In this document: piece after piece, positions 15,758 through 59,452 of the stretch
How positions within the stretch are numbered: position 1 is the stretch's first letter
How the letters are laid out: each line of letters starts with the position of its first letter
Notes under the pieces: model-generated
What the model was told of the DNA's origin: nothing
The model's database searches: none
What the model saw: only the letters and a program-made list of their open reading frames with translations
IMG/VR virus record: IMGVR_UViG_3300033495_000700
From: a virus
Lineage: Duplodnaviria > Heunggongvirae > Uroviricota > Caudoviricetes
Length of the DNA stretch: 64,000 nt
Direction: 5' to 3' (one strand)
Position numbers and translations under genes: made by a program

Positions 15758-15758
15758 G

Positions 15759-22496: not shown

Positions 22497-22530
22497 AAGC
22501 GGGAATGACGCCCAAGACCGCTGTGAATAT

Positions 22531-23725: not shown

Positions 23726-23943
23726 GATACTCTTTAATGGTTATGTTTTGTAAATCTGGATACTGTACAAACTTGAGACCCAGGTTTAGTCTTTTCAATT
23801 GCTGGCTCTGGGTAATATATTTAGGTCGCAACCAGCATTTTGGTATTTTATTTTCACTTGAAACACATTGTGTACATATCATAGTATAACATTGCTGTGC
23901 TGTATTTGTAAAGATTTAGTGTGGTCAAAACTCAAAAATTTTC

Positions 23944-24885: not shown

Positions 24886-24886
24886 T

Positions 24887-31569: not shown

Positions 31570-31767
31570 TGGATTACTTTCTTAATTATTTCATGCTTAT
31601 TTGCTTTGAACTCGGATTCCAATATTACCAACGTCTTGAATCCAAGGTCCTGAACAGTCTGTAATTTTAGCATATCTCGATGCCTGATTTCAGCCGCAGT
31701 TTTACCTCGCATGATTGCAGAATCCGCATATACTGCTGGGTTAGCATGCCAGTAATCACCGTTAAAT

Positions 31768-39000: not shown

Positions 39001-39821
39001 TACCCGTCATTGCCTTCCACCACACCTTCCCTTACTCCCTTTTCTTTACGCTTTGGTACTGGCTTTCCTGCCAAATCTTTATCGCCGATGTAGACACCAT
39101 TCTTGTCATGACTTGCTGGATTCTTTTCAAACGGCTTACCTTTGCGAGCTTCCCGATCTGCTTCTGCTTTCTTAACAGCATCAGCCCAGTAGCCTTCCGT
39201 TACATCTTGAGCAGCAGCTACAGCACTACGGCTTTCTGCCACACCTTCCTTACCTGAATTAGCGTGTGCCTTGGCAGCTTTTTCACTTGTAAAGATTTTA
39301 CGTGAACCAGCCTGATTAGTTGCAACATATGAGCCGTCTTTGGTTTTCTTTACCTCGCCTCTGTGATTACCACGTGCGTCCCGTGCGCTATCTGTAGTTG
39401 GATCCAAGCCTTCCGCCACACCTTGCTTATACAATGCTAGTCGCTTCTTCTCGTGAGTAATACTTTGTTGGATAGCATCTTGATCAGCATTGGGGCGATC
39501 TAGTTGTGCTTGTAATCTTTCTATAGCGGCTCGGATAGCATCTACATCCTTTTGATCACGCTTGCTCAAGCCCTCCGCTATACCTTGCTGCATATCTCGC
39601 TTGACTGCACGAGCAACATCTTGTGCCAGAGCACTGGGATTGCTATCTCCACCGTAGTTCAACACATCTACGATTGCTGCATGGATTGTACGTTGGTCGG
39701 CTCGGCGTGCCAAGTTGGGATATATCATTTCAAATTCAGCATATACTTGGTTTGCTAAATCTTCTTCATCGTAGCCTTCGACGATTGTGGGTTTGCGATT
39801 GAAAAGGTTGTCAATGATCAT
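36036..39821 (-). CDS. 1261-aa modular protein; candidate polyprotein of head-internal/ejected proteins with repeated QGVAEG linkers and a GNAT-like segment
   Basis: At least 9 copies of (Q/K)G(V/I)AEG. An internal ~170-aa duplication. YRGTGLGQNLYGVAMKLLG is GNAT motif-A-like. Gly-rich C-terminal region. Confidence 0.55.
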   Translation of the reverse strand: MIIDNLFNRKPTIVEGYDEEDLANQVYAEFEMIYPNLARRADQRTIHAAIVDVLNYGGDSNPSALAQDVARAVKRDMQQGIAEGLSKRDQKDVDAIRAAIERLQAQLDRPNADQDAIQQSITHEKKRLALYKQGVAEGLDPTTDSARDARGNHRGEVKKTKDGSYVATNQAGSRKIFTSEKAAKAHANSGKEGVAESRSAVAAAQDVTEGYWADAVKKAEADREARKGKPFEKNPASHDKNGVYIGDKDLAGKPVPKRKEKGVREGVVEGNDGYDAESTRDEYMNLQSGDYVRDTQDSSGEVFIMRGQPDDRRVRIEDKDGRGWNIAPYRLVAVDPDDAAIGHYFNLEEVKKFRTAYGWAGGSNEPRSAHAKEVAANRKEYDKRLGNFEPADQMFGVAKLIKDIAMSDASPEHKKVAIDALNKQGVAEGSRNDDEYGPAARDAWLQQQAYEKEYNKKPVVSAGAKIKIPTEDGITMQDIRLMAGEGKLTKKTVLQAIAVIRKQRRQQGMTEGSVDQLPTRGADYSNYDTDHLKIMLRPGVLHRNEARFKALIRKELHKREQQSDAQDQTKEKIQEIQRTPGDKEGLSTKSQNYGKETLSKIKMLPGSQRFGYTAGEAGRAGSFLTGADYIIELFDVKHPDDGLRKAGFLSLRSVPWFPIKNSYQVANVGLDNEYRGTGLGQNLYGVAMKLLGMTIVADETQTPQARSSWLRLSQVPGVSINGFTSVFSDEWALRNNRREIYDDSAARLIGLLLKAGGQEIGKKSDFVYVSFPVGANADQNELQSIQKGISIYSARHPEDGGPQHGLYARWGGPVREQGVAEGSLEELANTSLKVKEPKDFVNTNDRKQVTYKVMKFKSGKDTYLINFTVKGAPAFGKKQNWNAVNVSFGVREEQDDYSFGDEINTDLTAKNKNQFLIYSTVINAVRKFITEYNTEIDEIIMQGAGERQEAIYQRFFQSAGKYFPGWHHDGKHSLVRDVPRHTGKKVKEQGVAEGNDGYDDESTRDEYMNLQSGDYVRDSQDSSGEVFIMRGQPDDRRVRIEDKDGRGWNIAPYRLIAVDPEDAAIGHYFNDINEASAHAKQVAAKRKEYDKRLGNFEPTDDMVGTAKMIKDIAMSTASPEHKKAAIDALNKKGVAEGSRRKKKKTSRSLGRYFFPGYGYYGSGEPGGSGDGGGGESINRDMAEGKPREKEADYGADYQDMVSRVKKLAGMGPLKTVYDPVKRVYKNVPQAEQPKKPNTGSNTMSESRVKRQALIAQMLNGQ
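36415..36935 (-). repeat. intragenic duplication, copy 2 (~85-90% nucleotide identity to 38530..39050)
   Basis: Encodes GNDGYDDESTRDEYMNLQSGDYVRDSQDSSGEVFIMRGQPDDRRVRIEDKDGRGWNIAPYRLIAVDPEDAAIGHYFN...SAHAKQVAAKRKEYDKRLGNFEP...ASPEHKKAAIDALNKKGVAEGS. Confidence 0.7.
38530..39050 (-). repeat. intragenic duplication, copy 1
   Basis: Encodes GNDGYDAESTRDEYMNLQSGDYVRDTQDSSGEVFIMRGQPDDRRVRIEDKDGRGWNIAPYRLVAVDPDDAAIGHYFN...AHAKEVAANRKEYDKRLGNFEP...ASPEHKKVAIDALNKQGVAEGS. Confidence 0.7.
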
Positions 39822-39822: not shown

Positions 39823-40488
39823 TTATGCTTCTTCTAAGTAGTCTTGGCTGGGATCTTGCGATAATGAACGACGATGTGCTTGAAACATCTCTACTGCTAT
39901 TTCAGCTTCATCTAAGTCTCTGAACCGGCTGGGCAATATACGGCCTTGATAGTGAATTTCAAACCCACGACGTTGATCTCCGTAACACTCTAGACATGAG
40001 CCATCTTCTAGTGTGATTGTTTTCACAGGGCCAGATTCGCCTACACTCACTGGGCTCATCATGGCAGTACCTGACATCATTGGCTCTTGAGATTCTTCTT
40101 GTGCGTTTTCTTCGTCATATTGGTCTTGATCGTCGGCCTTGGCAGGATTCTTGTCTTGAATTTCTTGCTTGGCTTTTTGTTCTAGTTTGTCTAGATATTG
40201 TGTAAGATCCTTCTTGACCTTGCTTAACATGTCCTCGTCAATCGCAGCCATGCGTTCTGCTAATGCACCACCAACCGGCTGAACCGAATCACCAACCATG
40301 TTTTTACCCAGGGGTTTCTTTTGATTGTTGCTGCCTAGCACTGGTGATACGTTTTCAGGCTTGAACAATGCAGGCAGTTGCGGTACTGACTGTTGTTGTT
40401 TGTTTAGCCCTTTTTTTACCGAGACAGGAGTAATGTCTGACTCAATCACGGCCAGGCGTTTTAGTATGTTTGCAATGTCATTGCTCAT
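39823..40488 (-). CDS. hypothetical acidic protein (scaffold-like composition)
   Basis: 221 aa with an E/D/Q-rich middle. Confidence 0.4.
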   Translation of the reverse strand: MSNDIANILKRLAVIESDITPVSVKKGLNKQQQSVPQLPALFKPENVSPVLGSNNQKKPLGKNMVGDSVQPVGGALAERMAAIDEDMLSKVKKDLTQYLDKLEQKAKQEIQDKNPAKADDQDQYDEENAQEESQEPMMSGTAMMSPVSVGESGPVKTITLEDGSCLECYGDQRRGFEIHYQGRILPSRFRDLDEAEIAVEMFQAHRRSLSQDPSQDYLEEA

Positions 40489-40925
40489 GCTCGTTCAACT
40501 TTCAAATAACTATTCAGTTGCCAACGATACTTGCCATGAGCACTGAGTCGTTCTGCAATAAAGTTAGCAATACCTTGTTCATTTTCTTCGTTGGCTACTG
40601 CAAAGCAAACATCCAGTAAATCTAACATTTGATTGTTGTTGGCGTACAATTCTTCCAACATCAATTGAGCACGTGGGATTTTGATTTGTCCGGCAATCTC
40701 TGTGAGTTCACTGTAACGCTCTAGACTTCCCGGAGCATATTCTCCCAGGTAGCGAATGTATTCTGCTGTGGGATCTAATGCAGAATACGCATCTTCGTAG
40801 ATTTTTTGAAAGAATTTGTGCAGTTGTCCAAAGTCCGACCCCTCCACATTCCAGTGAAACTGGTGTGCTTTTAAGTAATAGGCAAAATTAGTTGCCAGGA
40901 GTGTTTTTAAATTGTCCGCGAGCAT
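40485..40925 (-). CDS. hypothetical protein
   Basis: 146-aa ORF. Confidence 0.4.
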   Translation of the reverse strand: MLADNLKTLLATNFAYYLKAHQFHWNVEGSDFGQLHKFFQKIYEDAYSALDPTAEYIRYLGEYAPGSLERYSELTEIAGQIKIPRAQLMLEELYANNNQMLDLLDVCFAVANEENEQGIANFIAERLSAHGKYRWQLNSYLKVERA

Positions 40926-41100
40926 GCTTGTTCCTTTTGTATTCCTTAGGCGTATTAGGCGTTAGGTCCGTTGTGTATTTACCACTCAGCATAGAACCGC
41001 CTTGTCTTGTTTGCATACCCATTGGTTGAACTAACACTGCCATAGATCCAGTGCTGGAGCTGCCCACACTTGCATCTTCCATTATTTCATGTACTTTCAT
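40888..41100 (-). CDS. hypothetical protein
   Basis: 70-aa ORF. Confidence 0.35.
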   Translation of the reverse strand: MKVHEIMEDASVGSSSTGSMAVLVQPMGMQTRQGGSMLSGKYTTDLTPNTPKEYKRNKHARGQFKNTPGN

Positions 41101-41112
41101 TTTTTATCCTTG

Positions 41113-41409
41113 TTAATCAGCAGTAACTGCTCGGTGTACACGATGTCTTGACGCAGGACTTAAAAGATGATTGTCATCAGTTTCTGGTTCATATCCACCA
41201 TAACGACTTGGGTCAGCATGATGTTTAATTCCAGTTTTGAGTTTTAGTATCCTGCCCATTCGAACTTGAGTGTTGTCTGGTGGAGAATTTGGACCACTGT
41301 TAGCATTACCAGCTTCTTCAACGTCCTTTTCGCCCAAGAATCCCATGCCTTCGCGTGGGTGATCAAATAATTCGTATATCAACATGATAGCATGCCAGTC
41401 ACGGACCAA
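41113..41409 (-). CDS. hypothetical protein
   Basis: 98-aa ORF. Confidence 0.4.
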   Translation of the reverse strand: MVRDWHAIMLIYELFDHPREGMGFLGEKDVEEAGNANSGPNSPPDNTQVRMGRILKLKTGIKHHADPSRYGGYEPETDDNHLLSPASRHRVHRAVTAD

Positions 41410-41449
41410 TTGATTGTTGCAGTCATTGTCATATACTTTGTGAAATCTG

Positions 41450-42094
41450 TTATGCCGTTTGTGTGGCAGGAGCCAATGCTGCGGCTAGGGCCATGCGTCT
41501 TTGTCTATCTGCGCCTGAACTTCGTTCATAGAATTGATCTACAATGGCAGCAGCATCGTTGGAGGTTTTTGCACTTTTCAATCTTCGCCCGGCGTTTGCT
41601 TCTGTGTTGTTCAATTCCCACTGCACAAACTCCAATTGGTCTTGCAAGCTAGACCCTTGTAATGGTTTACGCATCTCTTTAGCAAAATCTTGTTGTCGTG
41701 ATCCGCGCCACTGTGCAATACCATATGCTTGCTCGCCGGGATTTAGTGCAGCAGGATTTAAATTTGGTGTTGATTCTGCTTGTAGGTTGGCCACTAGACC
41801 GGCAGCTTGTTCAGGCGACCATCCTTGTTGCATAAAGTAGTTTAGGGCAATTTTTGCATTGCCCGATGCGCCACCACCTGCGTTATTGGATGGTCTAGAC
41901 GCACCAGATCCAGGCAAACGTATACGAGATCCTGGCTGAATATCATTAGCATTAGCCAACTGTGGATTTTGCCACATGATGCCATCTACGGTGGTATCGT
42001 AGGACTTGGCTATGCCGGGCAAGGAATCTCCAGATCTCACGGTATAGATATTACTAGAGCTGATGGCTTCGGACAAGAACTCAAATAACTTCAT
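41450..42094 (-). CDS. LysM-domain peptidoglycan hydrolase (phage tail/ejected lysozyme-like), CTS-like N-terminus
   Basis: MKLFEFLSE N-terminus. LysM segment YTVRSGDSLPGIAKSYDTTVDGIMWQNP. C-terminal segment GLVANLQAESTPNLNPAALNPGEQAYGIAQW. Confidence 0.55.
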   Translation of the reverse strand: MKLFEFLSEAISSSNIYTVRSGDSLPGIAKSYDTTVDGIMWQNPQLANANDIQPGSRIRLPGSGASRPSNNAGGGASGNAKIALNYFMQQGWSPEQAAGLVANLQAESTPNLNPAALNPGEQAYGIAQWRGSRQQDFAKEMRKPLQGSSLQDQLEFVQWELNNTEANAGRRLKSAKTSNDAAAIVDQFYERSSGADRQRRMALAAALAPATQTA

Positions 42095-42095
42095 G

Positions 42096-43253
42096 TTATT
42101 CTTTTAGCATGTTTGATAAACGACGCATCAGATCTACACTTTCTGCAAATGTTCCAGGTGCGTTTCTGCTTTCAGCCGCTGGTGTATCTGATATTGTACC
42201 TGCTCCCGGGAACGGTGTCTTGCCAGGTAATGGTTTTGCAGGAGTAGCTGCCGCTCCTTTGCCAGCCAACGCAGCCTTTTCGGCTTGTAAGGTAGCAATG
42301 TACCTTGCATTTGGCGGCAATTTGGGATCTGAAGTTTTACTAAATCTAGCAATTTCTCGGTCATATTCTTGCGGCGTTTTGTATCTAGGCGGTTTTCCTG
42401 CAGGTAATGAAGCCTGGCCTGCCGCTGCTGTTGGAAAAAATTGCTTCATTGCTGCTTGTGTAGCCGGGCCCATAATACCGTCTGATTTAATCTTTGCACC
42501 GGCTGCAATTAGCTCATCCTGTAATGCTTTTATTTTAGGATCTGATCCTGCTTTAGGCGCTGCGGCACCTGTCGGCGCGGTCTGTGTACCAGCTTGTAGT
42601 CGTGCATCTGTTGGATTAGAGGCTGGTGCTGGTGCTGTTGCTGCCGGTGCTACCGGAGCACCATCTCTTTCAGCATCAGCCGCCGCTGAATTTGGTGCCG
42701 CCGCTGGTGCCGCTGGTGCTACCGGAGCACCATCTCTTTCAGCATCAGCCGCCGCTGAATTTGGTGCCGCCGCTATAGGGCCTGGGTTTAATGCTGTAGG
42801 CGGTGTCACTGGTGAAGTTGTAGCCGCCGCCGCCGACTGTTCTGCCGATGTCGTTGATGCCTGCGCACCTGCTCCCAGTTCAGCTTCAGCTCGTCGAACG
42901 GCTGCTATATTGGCAGCTAGTTGTGCCTGTGCGCTGGTAGGCGGTGGATTTACAGGCTGTCCAGCTCCAGCTTGGACAGGATTACGCGAACCATCTTGAA
43001 CAGGATTACCCGAACCATCTGTCACCGTTAAAGGCTTAATCGGTGCGCCTGCAGGTAAAGTTCCACCAGCTGCTGTTTTTCCTTTATTAGGTAATCTGTT
43101 AAGAATAAACTGATCACTCAGATCGGGTTGTTGGCCGTCTTTGGTTAGTGCTTGTTGATCCGTTGGTGTTAATGCTGCAAATCTAGCAGCGTCTGCGCCA
43201 GTGTATGGATTGGCAATTGGCGCAGCTTCTCTTAAAAATTCTATTGATCTCAT
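42096..43253 (-). CDS. Ala/Pro-rich protein with PG_binding_1 domain, CTS-like N-terminus
   Basis: Start taken at MRSIEFLREAAP (ATG 43253, AAAGGAACA RBS). Contains KIKALQDELIAAGAKIKSDGIMGPATQAAMKQF and a tandem 23-aa repeat. Confidence 0.55.
   Translation of the reverse strand: MRSIEFLREAAPIANPYTGADAARFAALTPTDQQALTKDGQQPDLSDQFILNRLPNKGKTAAGGTLPAGAPIKPLTVTDGSGNPVQDGSRNPVQAGAGQPVNPPPTSAQAQLAANIAAVRRAEAELGAGAQASTTSAEQSAAAATTSPVTPPTALNPGPIAAAPNSAAADAERDGAPVAPAAPAAAPNSAAADAERDGAPVAPAATAPAPASNPTDARLQAGTQTAPTGAAAPKAGSDPKIKALQDELIAAGAKIKSDGIMGPATQAAMKQFFPTAAAGQASLPAGKPPRYKTPQEYDREIARFSKTSDPKLPPNARYIATLQAEKAALAGKGAAATPAKPLPGKTPFPGAGTISDTPAAESRNAPGTFAESVDLMRRLSNMLKE
42649..42774 (-). repeat. tandem direct repeat (2 x ~57 nt, period 69 nt) inside the CDS
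   Basis: gctaccggagcaccatctctttcagcatcagccgccgctgaatttggtgccgccgct occurs twice. Confidence 0.7.
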
Positions 43254-43290
43254 GTGATGTTCCTTTATGGATGATCTACGTTTATTTATT

Positions 43291-43491
43291 CTATTTGCCC
43301 TGTGCTGCCAATCTTGCGCCATTGTTAAAACTGTTGCTGTGACTGGCAGCATTCTTGTTGCCACGAGCTTTTGACCACGCATACCCAGCTCTATGGCCAG
43401 AACAATCTTTGGTGCAAGGACTGCCTAGGAACGTAAGTTCATCTAGTGCTTGCTGCGGCTGTTTATTACGAGTAAATTCTCTTGCTCTCAT
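43291..43491 (-). CDS. small basic protein with CTS-like N-terminus (MRAREF)
   Basis: 66 aa. Confidence 0.45.
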   Translation of the reverse strand: MRAREFTRNKQPQQALDELTFLGSPCTKDCSGHRAGYAWSKARGNKNAASHSNSFNNGARLAAQGK

Positions 43492-43967
43492 TTGGCATCC
43501 CCAAAGATTGGCCCACTAACATACTGACCATTTTGACTCAATACACCATTGCGTAGATTCTTGATGATACCGTCGGTGATGTCTCTACGGCGAAAGTGTG
43601 GCAAAAAGATATGAACCTCTACTGGTCGATCACCTTGCTCGCCTAGTATAGCATACATTCTGTGACGTCCGTCATGATCACGTACCTTGGCTTCCAAACT
43701 AAAGTCATCATTTTCCCAAGATTCGGGCACAACCACAGTCAAGAATGGCGCACCAAACCCTGGATCGTTGATCTGTCGGCGTAGATTTTGTATGGTTTCT
43801 TTTTCGTCAGCAGCATCAGCGTCCAAGGGCAAGCTGAGTTTGAGAAATGTGCTGGGTCGCATGACTGTGCGTATACCAAAGTAATCTACATCAGCATTGT
43901 GCGGAACAGCACCCAGACCTTGTTGGTTGTCTATCTTTAGTTCAGTTATGAATTCGCTTGATCTCAT
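43488..43967 (-). CDS. hypothetical protein with CTS-like N-terminus (MRSSEFITE)
   Basis: 159 aa with start/stop overlaps. Confidence 0.5.
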   Translation of the reverse strand: MRSSEFITELKIDNQQGLGAVPHNADVDYFGIRTVMRPSTFLKLSLPLDADAADEKETIQNLRRQINDPGFGAPFLTVVVPESWENDDFSLEAKVRDHDGRHRMYAILGEQGDRPVEVHIFLPHFRRRDITDGIIKNLRNGVLSQNGQYVSGPIFGDAK

Positions 43968-44167
43968 GTGTCTATCCTATGCACATTGGTCACTATGCTG
44001 TCTTTGCCGTATTGAGCTTGCAGCAATAATCGTGCCATGGCAGGTGATTTGGCAAATATAGCCACGTCTATGCTGGTGGTATAAGAGGGATTTTTCACAC
44101 GCACAGACGCACTGTACACATGAAATCCAGGCAGTAGTTCTTCACAAAGGAATTCTGTTGCTCTCAT
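43964..44167 (-). CDS. small protein with CTS-like N-terminus (MRATEFLCEE)
   Basis: Start at ATG 44167 overlaps the TGA of the 44167..45840 gene. Confidence 0.45.
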   Translation of the reverse strand: MRATEFLCEELLPGFHVYSASVRVKNPSYTTSIDVAIFAKSPAMARLLLQAQYGKDSIVTNVHRIDT

Positions 44168-45840
44168 CAGCAGTTCCACTTTCTCAACGCTAATGCTTTG
44201 CGAGTGGGTTTGCCATTGGGTTTTTTCATTGGACCCTTGACTCCGCCCATTCTGGCACAGAATGATTTACGACGTTTGGCTGCTTTTGATCCTGGTTTGA
44301 GTTTGCTGGGCTTGGTGGTCACTGCCATCTGTAATTTTGAGCCAGGATTCTCTCTGCGATAGCTAGCAACACCTTTGGCATTGAGCCCGCCCTTTTTACT
44401 CTTGCCTGCGCTTCTACGCCAAGCTGCTGTTTCAAACAGTTCGTGATCGTCTACTGATTCAAAGTCTTCCCAAATTACATCAGCATCAACACCGTGTGCC
44501 TCAGCCAGTTCCATTACCATTTCTTCAATAAGATCAAACTGTTGATCAGAGTCAAGATCTTCTGTGATTGACTCCTTGGGCACACAGTCAGGGACCATTC
44601 TCCCTCCTTTGTTTTTCATACCAATTTGTTTGTGTGTGTCCCAGCAGGCTTCTTCTAAATCTATACTCTCGTCAGTTTTTTTGGTAGCATTTATATATTT
44701 TCTATACACTGCCGCTGCCTCAGATTTTCCTGCAGCCTTGGCACGTTGTTCCATTGCCACAGCGGCTTGGATCTTGTGTGCGTGACTACGACCACTATTA
44801 CGAATCTTTAACACACTGGCTCTGGCATCTCCTTCTGTGGCAAATTTCAAACCAGTAATAGTGCCGTTGGGATTTTCATCTGTGTACAAGTCGCTATGCT
44901 TTTTACTATTGGCAGATTGTCCTGCTTTTCTTGGGATACGTTTGTTTTCCGTTACATTTGGCTTGAAGGACTGTGAGTTGTCTTGAACCTTGGACTTGCG
45001 CTGTTTGCGATAGTAAGTATTAGCAGGGTCAGTGTCATGACTTTGATCTGGCCACCATTCAATTGTGAATATCTTTCCATTTTCAAAATCATCATGCATA
45101 CTCATGATTCTTTGTTCGTACTCGTCTCGACTAGGAGATGTTCGTCCTGCAACCACATCCATTACAAAGTTCAAAGTAACAGCATTGGCAGCAAGACTAG
45201 CGCATCTGGCACCAACCTCATTCTTAAGATGATCAATCAGTATGCTTTCACTGCAATCTGCCAACGCAGAACTCAGTCTATGAGGCACCCGTAGATCAAT
45301 GTAACTGTAGCAATAGTCATAGTGCGGAGACGGGCTGATATGCATCACATACTCGTCTTTTATTTCGATGCGTTTGAATCCATCAAGATCATGCCACATG
45401 GCAATATCCTTTGTGGCATCATGCGGATCACCAAAAGTCTTGGTCAAATGCCAAGCATACTGTGCCGGTACACGATTGCGCCATGAGCGCAACAGGTCTA
45501 AAATGTTAGGCTGGCTTTTTTCAGCATCAGTTGCGTCTTCGTTGGTATTCTTCACACAGTTAGGATATGTTTTGCCAAACATCTTTTTATTACCTTCTTT
45601 GTGATAGCCTTTCCAACATGCTTCATCTAAATTTTTATGATCCCTGTGTGTTTGACACATACCACAATCAGGGCATGTCATTTCTTCGTCAATACTTTCA
45701 TTGCGTTTTCTCTTGCCAGCACAATGAGCCTTTTGACTGAATCCCTTGGGGTGAGAGCAGTTGATACTACTTTTGTATTTTTGGCTCCACTTTTCATCCA
45801 AGTGACGCATATTTTCTGTGATAAATTCATGGCTTTTCAT
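44167..45840 (-). CDS. 557-aa basic protein with CTS-like N-terminus (MKSHEFITE) and repeated Cys modules
   Basis: EACWKGYHKEGNKKMFGKTYPNCV and EACWDTHKQIGMKNKGGRMVPDCV modules. K/R-rich. Confidence 0.5.
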   Translation of the reverse strand: MKSHEFITENMRHLDEKWSQKYKSSINCSHPKGFSQKAHCAGKRKRNESIDEEMTCPDCGMCQTHRDHKNLDEACWKGYHKEGNKKMFGKTYPNCVKNTNEDATDAEKSQPNILDLLRSWRNRVPAQYAWHLTKTFGDPHDATKDIAMWHDLDGFKRIEIKDEYVMHISPSPHYDYCYSYIDLRVPHRLSSALADCSESILIDHLKNEVGARCASLAANAVTLNFVMDVVAGRTSPSRDEYEQRIMSMHDDFENGKIFTIEWWPDQSHDTDPANTYYRKQRKSKVQDNSQSFKPNVTENKRIPRKAGQSANSKKHSDLYTDENPNGTITGLKFATEGDARASVLKIRNSGRSHAHKIQAAVAMEQRAKAAGKSEAAAVYRKYINATKKTDESIDLEEACWDTHKQIGMKNKGGRMVPDCVPKESITEDLDSDQQFDLIEEMVMELAEAHGVDADVIWEDFESVDDHELFETAAWRRSAGKSKKGGLNAKGVASYRRENPGSKLQMAVTTKPSKLKPGSKAAKRRKSFCARMGGVKGPMKKPNGKPTRKALALRKWNC

Positions 45841-46544
45841 TTGTTCACCTTGCTCATTGTGTTTTTTGTAGTCTTGCCCTGCACCGCAGTGGTGCGAGCA
45901 GGATCGGGTGCAGAATCAGTACTGGCTGCTGGTATATACTGATTGATTGATCTGCGAGTGAGATCACCCAACACACCATCCACATCCAGATTGGCACCAA
46001 ACTTGGTATTCAGCATGTGTTGCAGTCGCCGCACCAGGGCAGATGGTAGACCGTTGCTTTCGGTCACAGCACTTTCGCTCTTGTTGCCGTAGTTGGCAGC
46101 ACCTTTCTTACGACATTGCACCAGGCGGCCCGAAGCATAGGCTGAAGGCCATACTTTAGCCGACGCCTTGACCTTGTAGTAACAAGCATCTTTCTTTTCC
46201 GCAATCATGTGTATGGGATACATGGCTTGGCCACAATGCGGGCATGATTCATGATTTTCGTTGGTCTTTTTTTTGGTGGCCACATTGATAGCAGCACCCT
46301 GACGATTGGCATTGGGATCTTCGCGGCGTTTTCTTGATGCAGCTGACGCTCGTCCTTTTTTGCCCAGAGCATGAGCCTTGGCCTGCGGCAAACACTTGGG
46401 CTTGCCTTCTGATTCAGAGCCACGAGCACAATCACCTCGGATCTTGCCGTCGGGACCAAATCTCACCCATTTTTGTTTGAACCAGTCTCGTAGATTTTCT
46501 TCCAACTGCTGCTGGTGTTCTGTGATAAATTCATGCGATTTCAT
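45837..46544 (-). CDS. 235-aa basic protein with CTS-like N-terminus (MKSHEFITE) and Cys module
   Basis: CPHCGQAMYP...DACYYKVKASAKVWPSAYASGRLVQCRKKG. Confidence 0.5.
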   Translation of the reverse strand: MKSHEFITEHQQQLEENLRDWFKQKWVRFGPDGKIRGDCARGSESEGKPKCLPQAKAHALGKKGRASAASRKRREDPNANRQGAAINVATKKKTNENHESCPHCGQAMYPIHMIAEKKDACYYKVKASAKVWPSAYASGRLVQCRKKGAANYGNKSESAVTESNGLPSALVRRLQHMLNTKFGANLDVDGVLGDLTRRSINQYIPAASTDSAPDPARTTAVQGKTTKNTMSKVNK

Positions 46545-46991
46545 TTACATCACCTTCTTTCCACGATCTTTTTCAGTGATAGGCCCGCCCACTACCCAGG
46601 CCGCACATGTTCTTGTGCCAGCACACTTGAAATGTAAAAAGTTACAATACCCTAGATCTGAAAGATTTATTGTGGCAGCAGCATCTATGTGGGACTCGCT
46701 ACCTCGGATGCCAGACTCAATGCACTTCCGCATGCTGTTGCTGGCATCAAATGCAGCACAGTTGCCGCACATCATGGTTTTTACTATTTTTTCTGGCACA
46801 GCCCAACGACCAGCTGCACCTCGCCAGTAATCCCCTGGCTCTAAAGGATTTGCTGGACCATAGTGATAATCATCTATAGCTGCTTGACGATTTTTGAGAT
46901 TTAGCTCAATGTCGTGAGTGACCACTGGGCACCCTTTTTCCATTGCTTCAACAAGTCTGATAAAACTTTTCATATGCTTATTTAACTCCAA
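46545..46991 (-). CDS. Cys-rich hypothetical protein (degenerate CTS-like MKSFIRLVE)
   Basis: 148 aa with several Cys (CGNCAAFD, CNFLHFKCAGTRTC). Confidence 0.45.
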   Translation of the reverse strand: MELNKHMKSFIRLVEAMEKGCPVVTHDIELNLKNRQAAIDDYHYGPANPLEPGDYWRGAAGRWAVPEKIVKTMMCGNCAAFDASNSMRKCIESGIRGSESHIDAAATINLSDLGYCNFLHFKCAGTRTCAAWVVGGPITEKDRGKKVM

Positions 46992-47511
46992 TTTGTAATA
47001 GACTTGTGTAGTCTGTTTCAGGATCCTGTGCAGACCGTTGGCCTTGGTACAGAATTACACTGAGATCATAATCACCAAAATTGTGATCAACATCATTCCT
47101 GCTTTGTAATGCCACCATGACGCCTGCAGGTATGTGATCGAACCAACCTTGATTTTCTATGTCATGACAACTGGTATTGATCACTAGTCCATCTTGATCC
47201 AGCTGTTGGTAGTTTAACCGATTGGCATCCTTGGCCATGTATTCAGTGTTAGCAATATTCAACATGTGACCCATGCGTTTTGCTGCACGGGTCCTATCAA
47301 CATTTCTATCTACATTCACAATGTGATTGCACTGTATCCGGCTCTTGGCCAACAGTATGCTCATGTTTCCATACCAGGAGCCCAGGATGTAAATTGTGCT
47401 GAACTGATCTTGAATTTTTCCAAGTTCGTGCAGCAACCACAGTTTGTTCAAGACCAGGTCTCGACTAAAACTACCAGAGATTGTGGATGGACTGAATTCT
47501 AATAGTTTCAT
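46978..47511 (-). CDS. hypothetical protein with CTS-like N-terminus (MKLLEF); weak methyltransferase-like motif
   Basis: ILGSWYGNMSILLAK...IVNVDRN. Confidence 0.4.
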   Translation of the reverse strand: MKLLEFSPSTISGSFSRDLVLNKLWLLHELGKIQDQFSTIYILGSWYGNMSILLAKSRIQCNHIVNVDRNVDRTRAAKRMGHMLNIANTEYMAKDANRLNYQQLDQDGLVINTSCHDIENQGWFDHIPAGVMVALQSRNDVDHNFGDYDLSVILYQGQRSAQDPETDYTSLLQIGVK

Positions 47512-48602
47512 TTGTTTTTTGCTCGTCCGGCTTTCATATTGGCCAACCAGTGTGACATGCGTTGTTTTTCACCAGAACTGTTCTTGGCAGTTTTTCTCAA
47601 ACTACTCACACTGGCTTTGGTATTTACGCCCACACGTTTGGCCAAGCCCTTGCGGCCAGGATTTTTGCCGTCGGCAAAGTTTTCATTGACTGAGGGCTCA
47701 CTGGGGGTTATAGGTTTTGCAACAGGTTGCTTGGCTTTGTACATAGCCTCCCATTTGTCTGAAATAGCATTTTTTAATTCCAGTGTGGATTTATAATTAT
47801 TGTCTTGCATGTACTTAATTATCCAAACAGCACTGGCACGGTCTCCCGAATCGGGCTTGCGAGCGTTGCTTAGATCCACACTGAGATTTTGATCTTCCGA
47901 TGGGTTGCCATAGTACCGCATGCTTTTTAAAGCACGTTTTGCTCGGTCACTTAGATGTGATTCGTCGCTCTTGGTAATTAACTCAATCCAGGGTTTCACA
48001 AAGTCTGTGGGCTTGCGAGAAGATCCAGCTGGCTGTGGACCACGCAATACATCACGAGCTTGGCCAGGTGTTTGTGCTCGACGTTTGTCCAACAGTCGCC
48101 ATGCTGCTTCGTCTGTGTAGAAAAACACAGGTAAACCTTGTTGTTTGGCCGTGACCAATATCTGTCTTGTTTCGGGACTGCGATATTCATCTTGTTTTTT
48201 CAGCAACACATGCACTTCAGTCACAGGAGTAATTGGAATAGTGGGCTCTTTACTGAACACACGGTCTTCCGCTTCTCTAGTTCTCGTGCCATTGCTGTGC
48301 AACCATGCACCATCCCAGTAGTCAATGGGTTTCACAATGTATCTAGAGTTAAACCAGTCACCGTCGAGTTTGAACATCACCCCACCTGATCCCACAAAAC
48401 GATGATAATCACCAGTTATGGTTCGTGTTAGACTAAGAAAGTATGGATGTCCAGCAGGTGCATAATTTTCTTCGGATCTGTTACCAATCACGCTGGCCAA
48501 TTCAAAGTTACCAGATTGCAGGATCTTTAGCCCGGCTCTGACACTGGTATAATGAAACAATACCGCAGTGGCTCGTTCAATTAAAAATTCATTAGATCTC
48601 AT
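47508..48602 (-). CDS. hypothetical protein with CTS-like N-terminus (MRSNEFLIE); paralog of the 49000..49623 product
   Basis: Start at ATG 48602 overlaps the TGA of the GNAT gene. Shared N-region LFHYTSVRAGLKIL versus LYHATSIPSMLGMW. Confidence 0.5.
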   Translation of the reverse strand: MRSNEFLIERATAVLFHYTSVRAGLKILQSGNFELASVIGNRSEENYAPAGHPYFLSLTRTITGDYHRFVGSGGVMFKLDGDWFNSRYIVKPIDYWDGAWLHSNGTRTREAEDRVFSKEPTIPITPVTEVHVLLKKQDEYRSPETRQILVTAKQQGLPVFFYTDEAAWRLLDKRRAQTPGQARDVLRGPQPAGSSRKPTDFVKPWIELITKSDESHLSDRAKRALKSMRYYGNPSEDQNLSVDLSNARKPDSGDRASAVWIIKYMQDNNYKSTLELKNAISDKWEAMYKAKQPVAKPITPSEPSVNENFADGKNPGRKGLAKRVGVNTKASVSSLRKTAKNSSGEKQRMSHWLANMKAGRAKNK

Positions 48603-49003
48603 TTTGGGTCCCACTTCATACTTTTGCTGCCCTTGATGGTTGGAGTAAAGCCTTGTGTTCGATAGAACTTGATCAATTTACTTTGACTCACTTGTCCTTT
48701 GTCCCAAGGGAACAGGGTCAAGCTGATGCCATCTTCTCTGGCCATGGCTTGTAGTTCTTGCATGGCACGAGATCCAACCCCTTGACGTAGAGGATATGCT
48801 TGAATCCATTTGACTTCAACTGCACCGCGTTTGCTAAAGCTAGGAGTTAATTCAAACATGGCAAATTGTTGATCATCGCCTTCGCCCCAGATCATAACGT
48901 GATTGTTCTGCATGGTGTAGGGATACTTTGCATAGACTTTTTCAATCCAGGCCTGAGCTGCATCATTTTTGTTTTCTTCAATTAAAAATTCATTGGCTCT
49001 CAT
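48599..49003 (-). CDS. GNAT-family N-acetyltransferase with CTS-like N-terminus (MRANEFLIE)
   Basis: AYPLRQGVGSRAMQELQAMAREDGISLTL matches GNAT motif A. Confidence 0.6.
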   Translation of the reverse strand: MRANEFLIEENKNDAAQAWIEKVYAKYPYTMQNNHVMIWGEGDDQQFAMFELTPSFSKRGAVEVKWIQAYPLRQGVGSRAMQELQAMAREDGISLTLFPWDKGQVSQSKLIKFYRTQGFTPTIKGSKSMKWDPK

Positions 49004-49623
49004 CTGTTGTCATCCCTTGACCGATCATATAGTGGATGATCGGGTCCATACTGTTCTCGTGACCTAATAGGTACATTATATTGTTTCTGTTGATTACCTA
49101 GCTCTTTTTTGACTTCTGTACGTGGATCACGTAGCAATGCATCCCATGTTGTTTGCATTTTGGGATTTTTGAACCAATTGTTTTGCATCAATTCATCATG
49201 AACTCGATCGCCTTTCTTGGGCAACCATATTTCAATCCTTTTTACATATTTTCTAAATGGATCCAACCCACCTTTGATTAGTGTTTCAAATCTGTCAGTA
49301 TCATGCATGTCACTGCGGCGTTGAAATTCATCACTAGAACTTTCTGGCGGTTCACCTTTGAACCAATCTGTACTGGGCATTCTTCTGCGCCCTATGTCTC
49401 TACGCAGCAGGTCTTGATCCAGGGTGAATATCACTCCGCCGCTGGAGCCATATGTGCTTATGTTTTTCAAATACCCCAAAGCATAGTTATAGTTTCTGGT
49501 GGTGCTGACATTGCCACCAAACCCCAATTTGTCATTATGCCACATGCCCAACATACTGGGTATACTAGTAGCATGATACAAGTCAGCTTCTTGATATTCA
49601 TTTAGAAATTCATTTGCTCTCAT
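49000..49623 (-). CDS. hypothetical protein with CTS-like N-terminus (MRANEFLNE)
   Basis: Start at ATG 49623 with a GAGGAT RBS. Confidence 0.5.
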   Translation of the reverse strand: MRANEFLNEYQEADLYHATSIPSMLGMWHNDKLGFGGNVSTTRNYNYALGYLKNISTYGSSGGVIFTLDQDLLRRDIGRRRMPSTDWFKGEPPESSSDEFQRRSDMHDTDRFETLIKGGLDPFRKYVKRIEIWLPKKGDRVHDELMQNNWFKNPKMQTTWDALLRDPRTEVKKELGNQQKQYNVPIRSREQYGPDHPLYDRSRDDNR

Positions 49624-49853
49624 CCGAGATCCTCGGTAATTGCAAACCACGGATCAATGATAACTAATGTGCCATCTTTACGTTGCATAACATTTTCTGT
49701 ATGCAAGTCCCAGCCTATTTTATTTATTTTTCCCGTATGGTACAGCAATGTCATTAATGTGAACAACACGCCGTATTCTGCTTGGTCCCGGTCATCTAAA
49801 TTATCAATACGGTTGAATATTTCTTCAACAGGTATATCGCCAGTGAAGCCTTC
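49620..49853 (-). other. in-frame open continuation after the TAG of the 1753-aa gene, encoding the kinase catalytic loop
   Basis: Same frame as the upstream gene: *EGFTGDIPVEEIFNRIDNLDDRDQAEYGVLFTLMTLLYHTGKINKIGWDLHTENVMQRKDGTLVIIDPWFAITEDLG*. It carries an HxDLHxxNV-like motif and an IID motif, and ends in an ATGA overlap with the next gene. Confidence 0.45.
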
Positions 49854-52800
49854 CTATGTTGCTTCATCTTGAATAATTTGCAAAGCCTGATTCCAGTTCA
49901 TGCGTTGAGTTGATAACGAACTCAGTATCCAGACCATGGCTTCTTCAAAACTGTTATTTTCAATTGGATACAATCGTTCCATATTGATCATGGTGTATTC
50001 TTTATCTAATACATCAAATTTACTAACTGAATTAAATCTAGGCAAATTTTTTATATCATTGTGTGCTGCAGAGAACTCGTAGAACCTATTAAACACTCGT
50101 TCAGATTGTGTGCTTGGATCTTCCGGCATTAATATTTTAATGACATTTTGTTCGTGTTTTGCATATACATTTGCGTCGGCGCCTGATCCTAATTTTTTAT
50201 AGCCGAGAGATTTAAACTGTTTGTCTATTTCTTTAGCAGTATCAGTACCGTACTCGGCCTCCGCCACAGCTGGTTTAATTCTGCTGAATTCGTATCTAAC
50301 CAGGGTGCCAGTGTCTGCACGGAGCGCCCTATATCCCCAGTCTCGGGCATAACGCTGAACCAGTCGGTCATATAGTTTAGCACGACTCTCACTGTTTTGA
50401 CCAGGCTCAACTTCTTTGCTGGCCGAGAAAAATAACTTTTGTGGTTTGTTTTTCTTAATAAATTTTTGGATAGCTGTCAATACAGTGGCAAATATTCGTT
50501 GAGCATCACCGTCGCCGGTTACTTCTTGACTGTTGTTTCTGTAAAACTCAACTCCCCATGTGTCATTTTCATCATCCTCTCGATTGAACATGATGCTTAA
50601 ATTTGTGCCATCAGGTAGTTTGGCCAACATATCAACATCACCATATTCACTTTTTTCAGATTTGGTTTTGTAAGGTTGGTCAAAGGCTTCCACCATGGCC
50701 CCTGGCAGGAAACTGGCTGCTATGTCTCTGCAACTGTTGAAGATGTCGGCATTGTCAGTGACCTGTAGATTGAATGGATAGTCTGTGACAGGATGCTGTG
50801 TGGGGTCTTGCCACCCAGCATAACATTTTTCAATGCCATAGTCAGTTAACAAATCAGTACAACTCTCACCATGCCGCTCATCCATGTCATGCACACACGG
50901 GCTCAGGGTAGTGACCATGATAGCATTGGACCCAATACGACCGTGACGTTTGAGATGATTATCTATGGCCACTCGTTCAGCATGGCGACGTGTTCCGTCG
51001 GGGCCTGGCAAGTTGATACCATAGGTGTGATTGTTTTTGTTGTCAATCAAACAAGCAGCCACACGTCCATACTTGTTTGGATCTGACTCATGTCCACGAT
51101 GTATCATGCTGATGCACTTTTCCAGCACCGTATCTAGTTTACCTAGTTTTGTAATCTCTCGGCTCTCGCCCAGGTCCTCACGTAATCGTTGTTCTAGCAC
51201 TGTGATGTTTTCTGACACTGATTGAGCACGTGGTCTTACTGAGAAGTTACTGGCATCCACTTCTGGATTTGCCTGCATTGCAGTGGCCACCCATTCTTGA
51301 CCCTTACGCCAGGCTTCTGCTTGATTTGCTGCCTGTATCACAAATACTGATTGGTTGGAAGATCTATTGTATACTTCCCACTGTGTTTGTGCCAATGGGA
51401 TATCTAACTCAACCTCTTCTACTCCTGGAATTGGGGTGGATGTGTATTGGCTTTGGCTTGCTGCCTCACCCATTTCTGGTACTACTGTTACTCCGGCCTG
51501 CATACGCCCAGGATTACTACGCATCCAGTTTATGGCCACACGGTTAGCATCACTCTGCACATTGCCCACACCTGAGAAACGATGTATTTCTTGACCGTCT
51601 GGATCTAAGATCAACCAGTTGCCGGTGAATGTTTGCTGGCCTTGCTCTGGACGAGTTAATGTTTGTGGTGCAAAGTTCTGAGCCACATCGGGTTCAATAT
51701 CAATGATGCCACCTTGTGCTGCATCGGCTTGTTGAGTTCGTACGCCATACAATTCAGGAGCTTCACGACGTTGATCAATAACTGAGCGAGCTTCTACTCC
51801 AGCAGCCATGCGGTTGGTCTGAGCCAGCTCTGCCACACTTAACCCATCACTTCTTCTAAACACTTCCCAAGGTCCTGGACCGGTCGGTGTTAGCGTGTTG
51901 CGGTCAACAGGCGGTGCAGCAGGTTCAATCTCTTGAGCAATTAACTCTAATCCAGAGCCCGAGTTTCTTGCATTGTAGTCCTGGATCCAGGCCTCAGCCC
52001 CAGCCTGGTAGCTAAATCTTCTAGGCCCGGCATTGCCTATAGTTACATAACGATCAAGTGGTGGCACCCACACTCCCCAGTTGCCGGTTGTTGTACTGCC
52101 TTGTTCTGTTGGTGTAATACTTTGGAATTTAGAGTCATATGCTCGGATTGGAGTGGCAGTCAAGTCCGTGGCGTAGTCCCATTCAGGAAATTCTTTCTTG
52201 CCTGCTGCAATGGCTTGTGCTGGATTGGTGGCCACCACCTCCACAGATCCGCTGTAGCCTGGGCGACCCACACGCCACACGTATTTTTCACCACCTGTGG
52301 GGTCTTTGGCAACTTTACGTTCTAGTTGTGCTTGTTTAATAAAACTCTTCAATGCTGCCTTGGGCAATTCGCCAGCTGAATACTTTGCAAATATTGCCAA
52401 GGGATCTGTTTCACCCTCGGGTGCCAACATCTTGTACAGCTTCTTGAGATACTCTTGTCTATATGCTTCAGGATTCAATGCAGCACTCATGGCCACGGTG
52501 AAACGCAACAAGGTGTTTTCAATCTTTTCAAAGTTCTCATCTAACCAATCTCCACCGGGGCTACGGAACTCAATATGCCCATCCTTGGTATTGATACTGG
52601 TATACTTGTCTGTGCTTCCTGAATGTATGGCCTTGGTGGCCAGCTGATTCATGCCAGATTTCATTGTGTCTAGAATTTGTTTAGCATTGGCAGGAGTGAT
52701 TTTTCCCTTGATCTTACTGATTGCAGATTTTGCATATTGGTTAGTGGATCTTCCAAAATTGTCCAACACATATTCGTCACCCATCAGCAGGGCTAATTTC

Positions 52801-57472: not shown

Positions 57473-58168
57473 TTATGGTCGTTTTTGCACTTGTACAGTT
57501 TTGCGAGTCAGCCCCGGGCATACTATTGCCAACATGGTAAGATGTTTGAGATCATGGTGTTCTACAAAATAATGCTCTCGGCTCCATGCCGAATACGGAG
57601 ATGCTTTACCCCATCCAAGACCTTGTGTGATAGTAGTATCAGTAAACCATCTTTCAGTAACAGGACTGGCCACAAGATCCGGAGTCTGATGGCTGATCCA
57701 GTTCCACACTGCTTGTTTTTTATCTCTAGATAATCTCTTTTCCTTGAGATAAGTTCTATATGGATATTTGGGTTGATTGATCAACATGATCACATCCTTA
57801 GGATACGCCAGCACTGCTTGTTTAGCACTGGATTCTGTTGGATAATTTCTAAACAGCGTATCGACATCTTTGATGTCATTGGTGTAAATATGAAAAGTAT
57901 TGTACCCATATGTGCGGTGAATAAATTTACTATCCAGAGTTTCTAATACATCCACCGCATGCAGTATGTTTTGTTTGGTCAAATCTGATGTCAATTGGGA
58001 CCCAATTGACGACTTATATTGATCACGTTTACGTATACGTTCCAGGATCATTGGGCGAGAAAGACTACTCAACAACCAAGCATCATCAATATGTAGACTT
58101 ACCACATATTCATACTTGCCAAAATAAAGTGATCCGCGTGGTTCACACTGCCATTGAGGTAGTAACAT
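57473..58168 (-). CDS. hypothetical protein
   Basis: 231-aa ORF. Confidence 0.4.
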   Translation of the reverse strand: MLLPQWQCEPRGSLYFGKYEYVVSLHIDDAWLLSSLSRPMILERIRKRDQYKSSIGSQLTSDLTKQNILHAVDVLETLDSKFIHRTYGYNTFHIYTNDIKDVDTLFRNYPTESSAKQAVLAYPKDVIMLINQPKYPYRTYLKEKRLSRDKKQAVWNWISHQTPDLVASPVTERWFTDTTITQGLGWGKASPYSAWSREHYFVEHHDLKHLTMLAIVCPGLTRKTVQVQKRP

Positions 58169-59339: not shown

Positions 59340-59452
59340 CTGAGTCTCCTATTAGGTAAAGTATCTACGTATGTATTATGCTGGGTGGATTGTGTTTGAA
59401 ATGTACTCGTCGGAAGTAATAAGCACTCGTCAAGTGCTTATTGAACATCTAG

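Follow-up and report, generated by a model that had tools for sequence, protein, structure and literature searches.

Why do twelve consecutive genes of one phage, whose products range from a lysozyme to a probable acetyltransferase and small Cys-containing proteins, begin with nearly the same nine residues? The question is raised by a 64,000-nt stretch of tailed-phage DNA (Caudoviricetes; IMG/VR record IMGVR_UViG_3300033495_000700), hereafter the window, in which a block of genes encodes proteins that start with the label, or tag, M-(R/K)-(A/S)-x-E-F-(L/I/V)-x-E. An original prediction, made from the letters of this DNA, had likened these N-termini to the capsid-targeting sequence (CTS) of the internal proteins (IPs) in the head of phage T4. 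The analysis reported here leads to a similar answer: the label is likely a T4-type capsid-targeting propeptide, which would be cut after its ninth residue, Glu9, and would load effector proteins.

The tagged operon and its cargos

The six-frame translation of the window was scanned with the regular expressions M[KR]..EF[ILVM].E (strict motif) and M[KR]..EF (loose motif). The strict motif occurs nine times in 64 kb, exclusively on the minus strand, which carries all genes of the window, and exclusively between positions 42094 and 49623; all nine matches are the first Met of open reading frames (ORFs) of 67-557 aa. The loose motif has 11 matches, every one inside the same cluster. As a chance control, the window was shuffled by mononucleotide and its long ORFs by residue, 300 times each; the strict motif was absent throughout (maximum 0), and the loose motif occurred with a mean of 0.15-0.3 and a maximum of 3. 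A chance origin of the cluster is excluded, because nine strict motifs stand against none in 300 shuffles and all of them lie at gene starts, on one strand and within 7.5 kb. The block contains the following genes, listed from its upstream end:

49620-55115, minus strand: giant polyvalent protein, directly upstream of g12 and translationally coupled to it
49000-49623, minus strand: g12, 207 aa, tag MRANEFLNE (tag DNA 49597-49623); N-terminal region related to g10, motif LYHATS
48599-49003, minus strand: g11, 134 aa, tag MRANEFLIE; probable GNAT acetyltransferase
47508-48602, minus strand: g10, 364 aa, tag MRSNEFLIE; ADP-ribosyltransferase (ART)-fold enzyme (Tpt1/DarT-like) with a helical C-terminal region
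46978-47511, minus strand: g9, 177 aa, partial tag MKLLEF, without x-E at residues 8-9; possible S-adenosylmethionine (SAM) methyltransferase
46545-46973, minus strand: g8, 142 aa, divergent tag MKSFIRLVE (L-V-E at residues 7-9); Cys-rich protein
45837-46544, minus strand: g7, 235 aa, tag MKSHEFITE; basic Cys-module protein (phrog_727, E 1e-34)
44167-45840, minus strand: g6, 557 aa, tag MKSHEFITE; basic Cys modules with a C-terminal DUF6321
43964-44167, minus strand: g5, 67 aa, tag MRATEFLCE; tagged orthologs in the related loci L003, L005 and L014
43488-43967, minus strand: g4, 159 aa, tag MRSSEFITE; possible ParB/sulfiredoxin (Srx)-like fold, motif DHDGRHR
43291-43491, minus strand: g3, 66 aa, partial tag MRAREF; small Cys-containing protein
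42096-43253, minus strand: g2, 385 aa, tag MRSIEFLRE; Ala/Pro-rich, weak peptidoglycan-binding domain
41450-42094, minus strand: g1, 214 aa, tag MKLFEFLSE; LysM and phage lysozyme
41113-41385, minus strand: 90-aa gene, decayed tag MLIYELF; orthologs in L004 and L005 start MRLYEFFD
40888-41100, minus strand: 70-aa gene, decayed tag MKVHEIMED; ortholog MRAHEIMED in L003

The tagged set g1-g12 (41450 to 49623) comprises nine strict tags, two loose ones (g3, g9) and a divergent one (g8), and the two decayed copies downstream of g1 extend the block to 40888-49623. The earlier count of eleven genes was too low, since the list given with it holds twelve, to which the two decayed copies are added, but the consecutive tagged run exists and every listed N-terminus is found in the window translation. 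A hydrophobic L/I/V-x-E is present at residues 7-9 in ten of the twelve products, i.e. the nine strict ones and g8. The predicted ATGA overlaps of stop and start codons are found at seven starts (g3, g4, g6, g9, g10, g11 and g12), with TGATG at g5; the remaining tagged starts follow short spacers, with AGGA-like ribosome-binding sites at some of them (g2, g7). These overlaps indicate one translationally coupled operon, of which the giant gene at 49620-55115 is the first. The starts themselves are corroborated by independent automatic gene calls on near-identical metagenomic contigs, which use the same start for ten of the twelve genes, and by the position of the tag at ORF starts in relatives. 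The gene caller set the start of g2 20 codons further upstream and missed g3, the start of which is kept in L004 and L005 and which is contained in a 213-aa tagged protein in L003. A megablast search of the array region against 50,697 phage records returned no match.

The products behind the label are diverse. As anticipated, g1 combines lysozyme and LysM domains (Pfam Phage_lysozyme2, E 2e-29; LysM, E 3e-11), and g6 and g7, recognized early on as two basic Cys-module proteins, match DUF6321 and phrog_727; in g6, which corresponds to Syn19_101 module by module, these matches reach E 5.6e-21 (Pfam DUF6321) and E 5e-41 (phrog_727). The peptidoglycan-binding domain assigned to g2 is present as a PG_binding_1 match but falls below the curated cut-off (E 1.4e-3), and the GNAT assignment of g11 is borderline (Pfam Acetyltransf_1, E 5.8e-4; 20.6 bits versus a cut-off of 20.7). 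Orthologs of g2 start with MRSIEFLRE or MRSTEFIRE. g10 is a predicted enzyme of the ART fold with an H-Y-E/D-type NAD-binding core, in which H17 and Y18 are invariant. The proposal that g10 and g12 form a paralog pair is retained for the first ~85 residues only, over which g12 aligns with the g10 family (hhalign, 95%, a score inflated by the shared tag within the aligned stretch), but not for the rest of the proteins. g12 is also called as 207 aa in near-identical contigs, and its tagged orthologs start MRAKEFITEW and MRAKDFVTEW.

The assignments of g9 and g4 are more tentative. g9 matches Pfam Methyltransf_31 at E 0.048 only, and a Pfam search relaxed to E 5 added nothing beyond this weak methyltransferase match; an ortholog of g9 starts MKLLEFSPLT. 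The top Foldseek matches of g4 (ParB, Noc, KorB, Srx and Osa) are consistent with the proposed fold but weak (E 0.14-1), and 78 of 96 g4 homologs carry the strict tag, with E9 invariant. Orthologs of g8 start MRNFIRLVE/A and MRDLINLME/A (here and below, a slash stands directly after the final Glu), with the hydrophobic-x-E kept at residues 7-9, and a homolog of the 70-aa gene in L086 (MRAQEFIKENASVGATSSG) has the tag MRAQEFIKE. PADLOC models had no match among ten cargos. The cargo set, envisaged as an arsenal of head-packaged effectors, is diverse, as stated, but consists mostly of enzymes of the 'polyvalent protein' type and not of small inhibitors like the T4 IPs. This repertoire includes the ART fold of g10, the lysozyme of g1 and a zincin-like motif in a tagged protein of L046, while the GNAT and ParB/Srx matches are weak. 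The HExxH motif of the L046 protein, read from sequence only, is FHELVHHRQ.

Labels and domain boundaries in related phages

A search of IMG/VR for relatives of g10 identified 19 loci with 51-91% identity on contigs of up to 524 kb. At these g10-linked loci the motif is found on the coding strand only and at gene starts only, in front of 17 cargo families. Furthermore, a scan of IMG/VR with the DNA pattern ATGAGA-N6-GAATTY-NT-N4-GAA yielded at least 120 loci. Among the matches listed, the pattern lies at the start of an ORF of at least 40 aa in 118 of 120 cases, mostly few codons past an upstream stop, and Ala3, a position left free in the pattern, is present in 127 of 144. The pooled label-bearing proteins fall into at least 58 families, which agrees with the expectation that homologous phages would carry different cargos behind the same motif. 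The wider consensus reads M-R-A-x-E-F-(I/L/V)-(T/x)-E, and conservation stops at Glu9. A 108-aa family (MRTREFLHEVMS; nine loci: L060, L064, L083, L099, L121, L127, L138, L142 and L148) was left out of these statistics as probably unrelated; it is identical across loci and usually preceded by at least 22 open codons, and its match is probably an internal Met and a false positive of the scan.

Domain architectures change between relatives, and the label changes with them. In L005, the g10 ortholog is split into proteins of 304 and 64 aa, the second of which starts with MRAAEFVIDE, and the C-terminal DUF6321 module of g6 is a gene by itself in L020 (96 aa, start MRANEFIIE). The GNAT domain of g11 has neither an ORF start nor a label in L003, L004, L005 and L014, where the frame runs on upstream; where GNAT is a separate gene, as in the window and in L108, the label stands exactly at the domain boundary. 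Conversely, a g10-like domain, GNAT and LysM-lysozyme are joined in L098 in one 704-aa protein with a single label, and GNAT, a further region and a kinase-like domain share one label in L108. There is one label per polypeptide: split-off domains gain their own and fused domains share one. Read this way, the genomes would provide a natural counterpart of a sufficiency test for encapsidation.

Similar architectures extend to L161, a more distant 324-kb genome, in which eight consecutive genes have variant labels (MRSSEITPY, MRHYDLVPE, MRAKDFVTE, MRLQEFLIE, MKSRDFVNE, MRASEIAPK, MRIQDIITE and MRAQEFITE). The first two belong to the nucleotidyltransferase and amidoligase domains of the giant protein, which are separate genes in L161. 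This tagged operon is adjoined by rubrerythrin, rubredoxin and Fe-S assembly genes. Among g10 homologs, the strict label is located at residue 1 in 68 of the best 120 of 2259, and E9 is invariant in the family. Degraded labels (MRLQELLE/AAT, MLVRDLFE/AAS) are found as well, and in an extended form (MRATEFITEETAELLIE/GAT) a second Leu-x-Glu coincides exactly with the start of the domain. Distantly related g10 proteins of cultured phages (Salicola SCTP-2 gp503; Dickeya JA29_140 and JA29_141) are untagged and start directly at the domain. In AlphaFold (AF2) models built on alignments of these families (predicted local distance difference test, pLDDT, 80 for both), residues 1-7 of g10 and 1-29 of g4 are disordered, and the label is accordingly modelled as a detachable N-terminal add-on outside the fold.

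The commonest tagged family consists of proteins of ~125 aa with a conserved basic C-terminus (..SPVKxFKGYKRK; L154, L157, L158, L116, L077 and others). Its genes usually form a tandem pair, followed by a gene of ~215-230 aa and then by a T4-like large terminase (TerL), with labelled pairs 1-3 kb upstream of TerL in at least 12 loci. No homolog of this family was found in cultured phages by tblastn, nor did a profile comparison with the 14 proteins flanking TerL in Pseudomonas phage PA5oct identify one. A further tagged protein of 366-370 aa (MRAFEFLTEA...) is ligase-like with a KWDG motif (L041, 2006-3118; L145, 8809-9909); its gene adjoins a nucleotidyltransferase-like gene, with a ribonucleotide reductase gene nearby. 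Such an enzyme would be an unexpected head cargo, possibly an injected RNA-repair enzyme.

The domain repertoire resembles that of the polyvalent proteins, for which injection together with phage DNA has been predicted (Iyer et al., 2017; PMC5512222). ART, GNAT, ParB-like, zincin-like peptidase, peptidoglycan hydrolase, nucleotidyltransferase and deaminase domains are common to both, a polyvalent protein of 1831 aa heads the operon, and the relatives L098 and L108 fuse domains under one label. The giant protein of the window combines at least two disparate domains in one polypeptide, with Pfam matches to nucleotidyltransferase, amidoligase and cytidine deaminase domains, a zincin-like motif (HEMTH) and a kinase-like C-terminus. 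In contrast to polyvalent proteins, the domains of the window are mostly encoded by separate genes, each labelled, most array genes having one domain and g6 repeating one basic module, and no MuF-type head-attachment domain was seen. As far as Iyer et al. (2017; PMC5512222) is searchable, no description of an N-terminal label was found in it.

Head machinery, virion links and the T4 precedent

The DNA polymerase of the window is 49% identical to that of PA5oct and 45-47% to those of Atu_ph07 and Phosso, and matches thousands of T4-like phages. The same cultured phages (Phosso, PA5oct and Atu_ph07) are closest in TerL, at ~50%. These similarities assign the phage to the T4 superfamily and, within it, to 'group 2' of the T4-related jumbo phages in the sense of PMC7824862. 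The portal, prohead protease and capsid protein of PA5oct are of the T4 type (PMC7318152).

T4 head proteins were searched by local tblastn against all fetched loci, and the head machinery was found on contigs of relatives and not inside the window. Exact-protein look-ups outward from both window ends led to chaperone, PhoH, RNA-ligase and glycosyltransferase genes without reaching a head module. L008 carries a labelled g10 ortholog, 71% identical to g10 of the window, on the same contig as genes for a gp20 portal and an acidic core-like protein, for a gp21 protease that is 36% identical to that of T4 over 156 aa (E 4e-18), for a coiled-coil scaffold resembling gp22 and for a gp23 capsid protein. 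The propeptide of this capsid protein, MSKVLLE-SRWDETKEALLE-GLKGTRRSTMGVILE-NTKKQLLAE/STAGTTTAGN, contains four hydrophobic-x-Glu motifs (in short, MSKVLLE..ALLE..VILE..QLLAE/STAG) before the conserved mature N-terminus, and the scaffold starts with MFDAIKPLLE. The apparent start MRAMALYLKE of the L008 protease was set aside, as the protein probably begins with MALYLKE, at the ATG where its orthologs start. Across the best 80 of 599 confirmed IMG/VR stretches, proteases of this type show 88-100% identity, and their presence in these 599 stretches indicates that the clade is abundant. In addition, a 524-kb contig, IMGVR_UViG_3300027749_002876, carries both a T4-like TerL with a labelled pair (L077) and a g10 locus (L019). 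A conserved 75-aa gene is located directly after the portal, in the position of T4 gp67 (L008, 3634-3861; L242, ~8790-9016); its product starts with the label-like MKLFEMFD or MKLMEMFD (compare MKLFEFLSE of g1) and lacks Glu9.

Links between tagged proteins and virions are indirect and run through homologs. The PA5oct protein EST35_0205 (482 aa), encoded just downstream of TerL and flagged as found in virions with ESI-MS/MS (electrospray ionization with tandem mass spectrometry), starts with MKLFEVFTLYE and is homologous to three labelled proteins from L053 and L110 (E 1e-17 to 1e-29). Furthermore, five basic Cys modules of g6 and g7 recur in T4-GC119 of cyanomyoviruses, the gene of which is located between gp16 and gp17. 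T4-GC119 is annotated in GenBank as 'structural protein' in S-P4 and S-E7; no proteomic support for it was found in PMC3037559, the main text of which calls it hypothetical.

The proposed function has its closest precedent in T4, in which all internal head proteins reach the scaffolding core via the CTS and Alt is cut at ITE-6 (PMC5694885). In the T4 genome, IPII and IPIII start with MKTYQEFIAE/A and IPI with MKTFKEFTSTTTPVSTITE/A (MKTFKEFTS...ITE/A). For encapsidation, the N-terminal ten residues of IPIII are enough (PMC9026906). CTS mutants with changes at residues 2, 4, 7 and 8 and Asp at residue 10 linked targeting mainly to Tyr4 and Phe7, and processing to Ile8 and Glu10 (PMC9026906). The T-even internal proteins are a diverse set in which the CTS alone is conserved (PMC3012670). 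Like the CTS, the label would be a short N-terminal propeptide on unrelated proteins, with the pattern M-K/R-..-E-F-I/L-x-E, the signature of gp21 cleavage and diverse cargos, in a lineage equipped with gp21-type protease, scaffold and gp23-type capsid protein. Aligned with MKTYQEFIAE with a one-residue gap, it retains M, K/R, E-F, I/L and the final E, although the motif is too short for homology statistics. The likeness to IPII and IPIII put forward in the original prediction is upheld, with Phe, Ile/Leu and Glu kept, whereas the length is corrected to nine residues, one fewer before EF than in the ten-residue T4 CTS, and there is no conserved counterpart of T4 Tyr4. The likeness may also reflect convergence on the same protease and scaffold interface. 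T4 differs further in having three scattered IP genes that encode small basic inhibitors, whereas 12-14 tagged genes form one translationally coupled operon in the window and the cargos of the label are mostly enzymes of 60-700 aa. The clade that bears the label is uncultured, abundant and only ~30-36% identical to T4 in head proteins, and the packaging of its labelled proteins is inferred here.

Two other systems are instructive. Like T4 Alt, g10 combines an ART fold with a short N-terminal extension ending in hydrophobic-x-Glu, and a role in host takeover at entry is plausible. Unlike Alt, it resembles the Tpt1/DarT branch (H17, Y18) and not the R-S-E Alt/VIP2 clade, without sequence homology between the two, and its substrate could be nucleic acid instead of protein. 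The phiKZ-like phages SPN3US and 201phi2-1 also have many proteins in jumbo heads and a T4-related prohead protease that cuts after Glu (PMC5694885). Their A/S/G-x-E sites, propeptides that often exceed 100 residues, absence of a shared short label and different capsid lineage set them apart.

Following T4, each separately translated protein of the operon would be made with the label, which would bind the scaffolding core of the assembling prohead so that the protein is enclosed as the gp23-type shell forms. The gp21-type prohead protease would then cut after Glu9 (hydrophobic-x-Glu), and the mature enzyme would stay among the packaged DNA and be ejected with it into the next host. Acting at entry, the cargos may constitute an arsenal of an ART-fold enzyme, probable acetyltransferase, methyltransferase and ParB/Srx-like domains, basic, presumably DNA-binding Cys-module proteins and a LysM-lysozyme with its peptidoglycan-binding partner.

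Capsid targeting weighed against its rivals

Several points weigh against capsid targeting. Core binding, cleavage at Glu9, virion presence and ejection of the strictly tagged proteins are steps that we infer, and a nine-residue motif cannot establish homology with the ten-residue T4 CTS. Glu9 is often followed by a large or charged residue (R, N, H, Y, E and L in the window), and by S, G or A in only 39% of the tags in the wider set; at most T4 sites the next residue is Ala or Ser. The array is located among replication, chaperone and nucleotide-metabolism genes. Promoter and terminator scans, including the T4 late-promoter word TATAAATA, did not rise above shuffles and identified no late promoter, and the timing of expression could therefore not be deduced from them. 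The tagged ligase-like enzyme and the lysozyme, which acts in the periplasm, are not obvious head cargos. The closest cultured phages are less than 51% identical in polymerase and TerL, and the parts of them that were examined lack a strict tag. Direct linkage of label and machinery comes from one 27-kb metagenomic contig (L008) and the 524-kb contig. The idea that tagged genes generally flank the head module was dropped, and their adjacency is the exception, because 80 loci (832 kb) around the protease yielded a single tagged gene. Finally, Arg2 is encoded by AGA in 35 of 36 cases, compared with 23% genome-wide, and 49 of 50 tags begin with ATGA; codons 2-3, and with them part of the conservation, are therefore under a constraint on the nucleotides as well, which probably serves the stop/start overlap or efficient initiation.

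Of the alternatives, the one that survives best, though it is itself improbable, accepts the label as a protease-recognised propeptide that acts as a safety catch or as an address elsewhere (tail, baseplate, membrane or periplasm). It would account for the potential toxicity of several cargos, such as the ART-fold enzyme and the lysozyme, for the departure of the post-Glu9 residue from T4 preferences and for the matches of g1 to 'phage tail lysozyme' and tape-measure PHROGs. Inhibition of an enzyme by a disordered nine-residue label outside the catalytic fold is unlikely, however, and the same label is present on basic, presumably DNA-binding proteins and on small proteins that lack an enzymatic fold. 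The T4 precedent for exactly such a motif is targeting to the head core and not to another site.

Somewhat less credible is a translation-initiation or coupling element that acts at the RNA level, through the ATGA overlap, an A-rich second codon and an unstructured start, with no role for the peptide. The ATGA and AGA biases described above fit this idea, as do the use of GCA for Ala3 in 22 of 26 tags and the overlap of seven of the twelve window starts with an upstream stop codon. It was weighed in a codon analysis of 50 distinct tags from the window and its relatives, which had been found via cargo homology and not via the tag. Glu5 is encoded by GAA/GAG at 78/22 and Phe6 by TTT/TTC at 68/32, compared with 78/22 and 69/31 in the rest of the window genes, while position 7 alternates between unrelated Leu, Ile and Val codons; the codon for Ser3 switches between AGC and TCG in the tags of g6 and g7, and the DNA upstream of the tags is not conserved. 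Since codon usage at Glu5 and Phe6 follows that of the genome and position 7 switches codons, these positions are held as amino acids, and Glu9 is likewise conserved as a residue. The label is selected at the protein level. In addition, the tag is also found at non-overlapping starts (g1, g2 and g7), untagged window genes use ATGA overlaps too (e.g. the starts at 40488 and 39821), and the tag returns exactly at the domain boundaries of split proteins.

It is very unlikely that the label is a degron or a handle for a chaperone or unfoldase, by which the turnover or folding of effectors would be timed. The window and its upstream extension encode suitable partners (ClpB-like protein, 58143-61021; DnaJ, 61070-61852; a weak Cpn10 match), but no ClpP-type or Lon-type peptidase partner was seen there, the motif ends in the hydrophobic-x-Glu of T4-type prohead proteases, as in the capsid and scaffold propeptides of the clade, and homologs of tagged proteins have been reported, or are annotated, as components of virions. 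To the same slight degree, the repeated 27 nt could be mainly a recombination site for cassette shuffling with the peptide as a neutral by-product, as suggested by the highly variable gene content and order behind the label among close relatives, by splits and fusions at label positions and by the nearly identical tag DNA of g10, g11 and g12, but most tags differ at many synonymous and non-synonymous positions and are not similar enough to recombine homologously, the purifying selection at E5, F6 and E9 across at least 58 families favours a peptide function, and shuffling is compatible with capsid targeting and not an alternative to it. Each of these rivals covers part of the data; none of them joins peptide-level conservation, one label per polypeptide and the signature of a T4-type protease.

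The surroundings of the operon contain further features. In the window, the giant gene is read as 1753 aa due to a TAG codon at 49854-49856, whereas near-identical contigs encode an uninterrupted protein of 1831 aa; the change from TGG to TAG is due to a single base at 49855, the one mismatch in 5640 nt relative to these contigs, and may reflect a genuine nonsense mutation, an error of sequencing or a site of read-through. The N-terminus of the giant protein, MKFHDLDNY, was rejected as a decayed tag, as its close orthologs begin with MNFHDLDN or MDLKELDS. Immediately downstream of the tagged block, the minus strand encodes an untagged Dps/ferritin-like protein (40485-40925; Pfam Ferritin, E 3e-20) with the PHROG label 'DNA binding protein', and downstream of the array a 1261-aa protein (36036-39821, minus strand) with faint matches to DUF6934 and to a head-protein PHROG (E 8e-4); DUF6934 also weakly matches the giant polyvalent protein. 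The family-B DNA polymerase (30583-35362, minus strand) is encoded in two ORFs (33743-35362 and 30583-31569), which are separated by an HNH/homing-endonuclease gene (32723-33703) and another ORF. The ClpB-like protein is also divided between two ORFs (522 aa, Clp_N/AAA; 398 aa, AAA_2/ClpB_D2-small), both labelled 'ATP-dependent protease' in PHROGs, and forms a chaperone set with DnaJ. The Cpn10 match lies further upstream, in L031, together with PhoH and an AAA protein with an intein-splicing domain. The window also encodes an RNA ligase and sugar-nucleotide enzymes. Two nucleotide-sugar epimerases, a QueE-like radical SAM protein, glycosyltransferase-like proteins and an exonuclease are clustered on the minus strand at ~14200-26100 and may serve DNA hypermodification or the modification of surface sugars.

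The principle of capsid targeting is already known from T4. What appears to be new is the presence of such a label in a distant, abundant and uncultured jumbo clade, on 12-14 genes per operon and at least 58 families, and its attachment to the enzymatic domain set of polyvalent proteins, with domain fusion and fission tracking the label. The searchable literature yielded no prior account of the label in this clade, of its scale or of its presence on polyvalent domains. We lean towards the broader view that uncultured T4-related jumbo phages of this clade use a universal nine-residue address, MRAxEF(I/L)xE, which would load any protein that bears it, a dozen or more per phage and at least 58 families in all. 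Loading would then depend on the label and not on fusion into giant polyvalent proteins, and the T4 CTS and the 'polyvalent protein' hypothesis would be joined, as the same domains are either fused under one label or split and labelled individually. The proteins that a phage injects are usually unknowable without virion proteomics of a cultured phage, and most jumbo phages are uncultured. For a widespread environmental group (at least 120 label loci, 599 protease stretches), the whole injected set could instead be listed from sequence alone, including DNA- or RNA-directed ART-fold enzymes, ligase-like repair enzymes and peptidoglycan hydrolases. Such a list would be a catalogue of candidate anti-defence and host-takeover effectors from at least 58 families, most of them without known function, and the label itself would provide a second, naturally diverged CTS for engineered protein delivery by phage heads.

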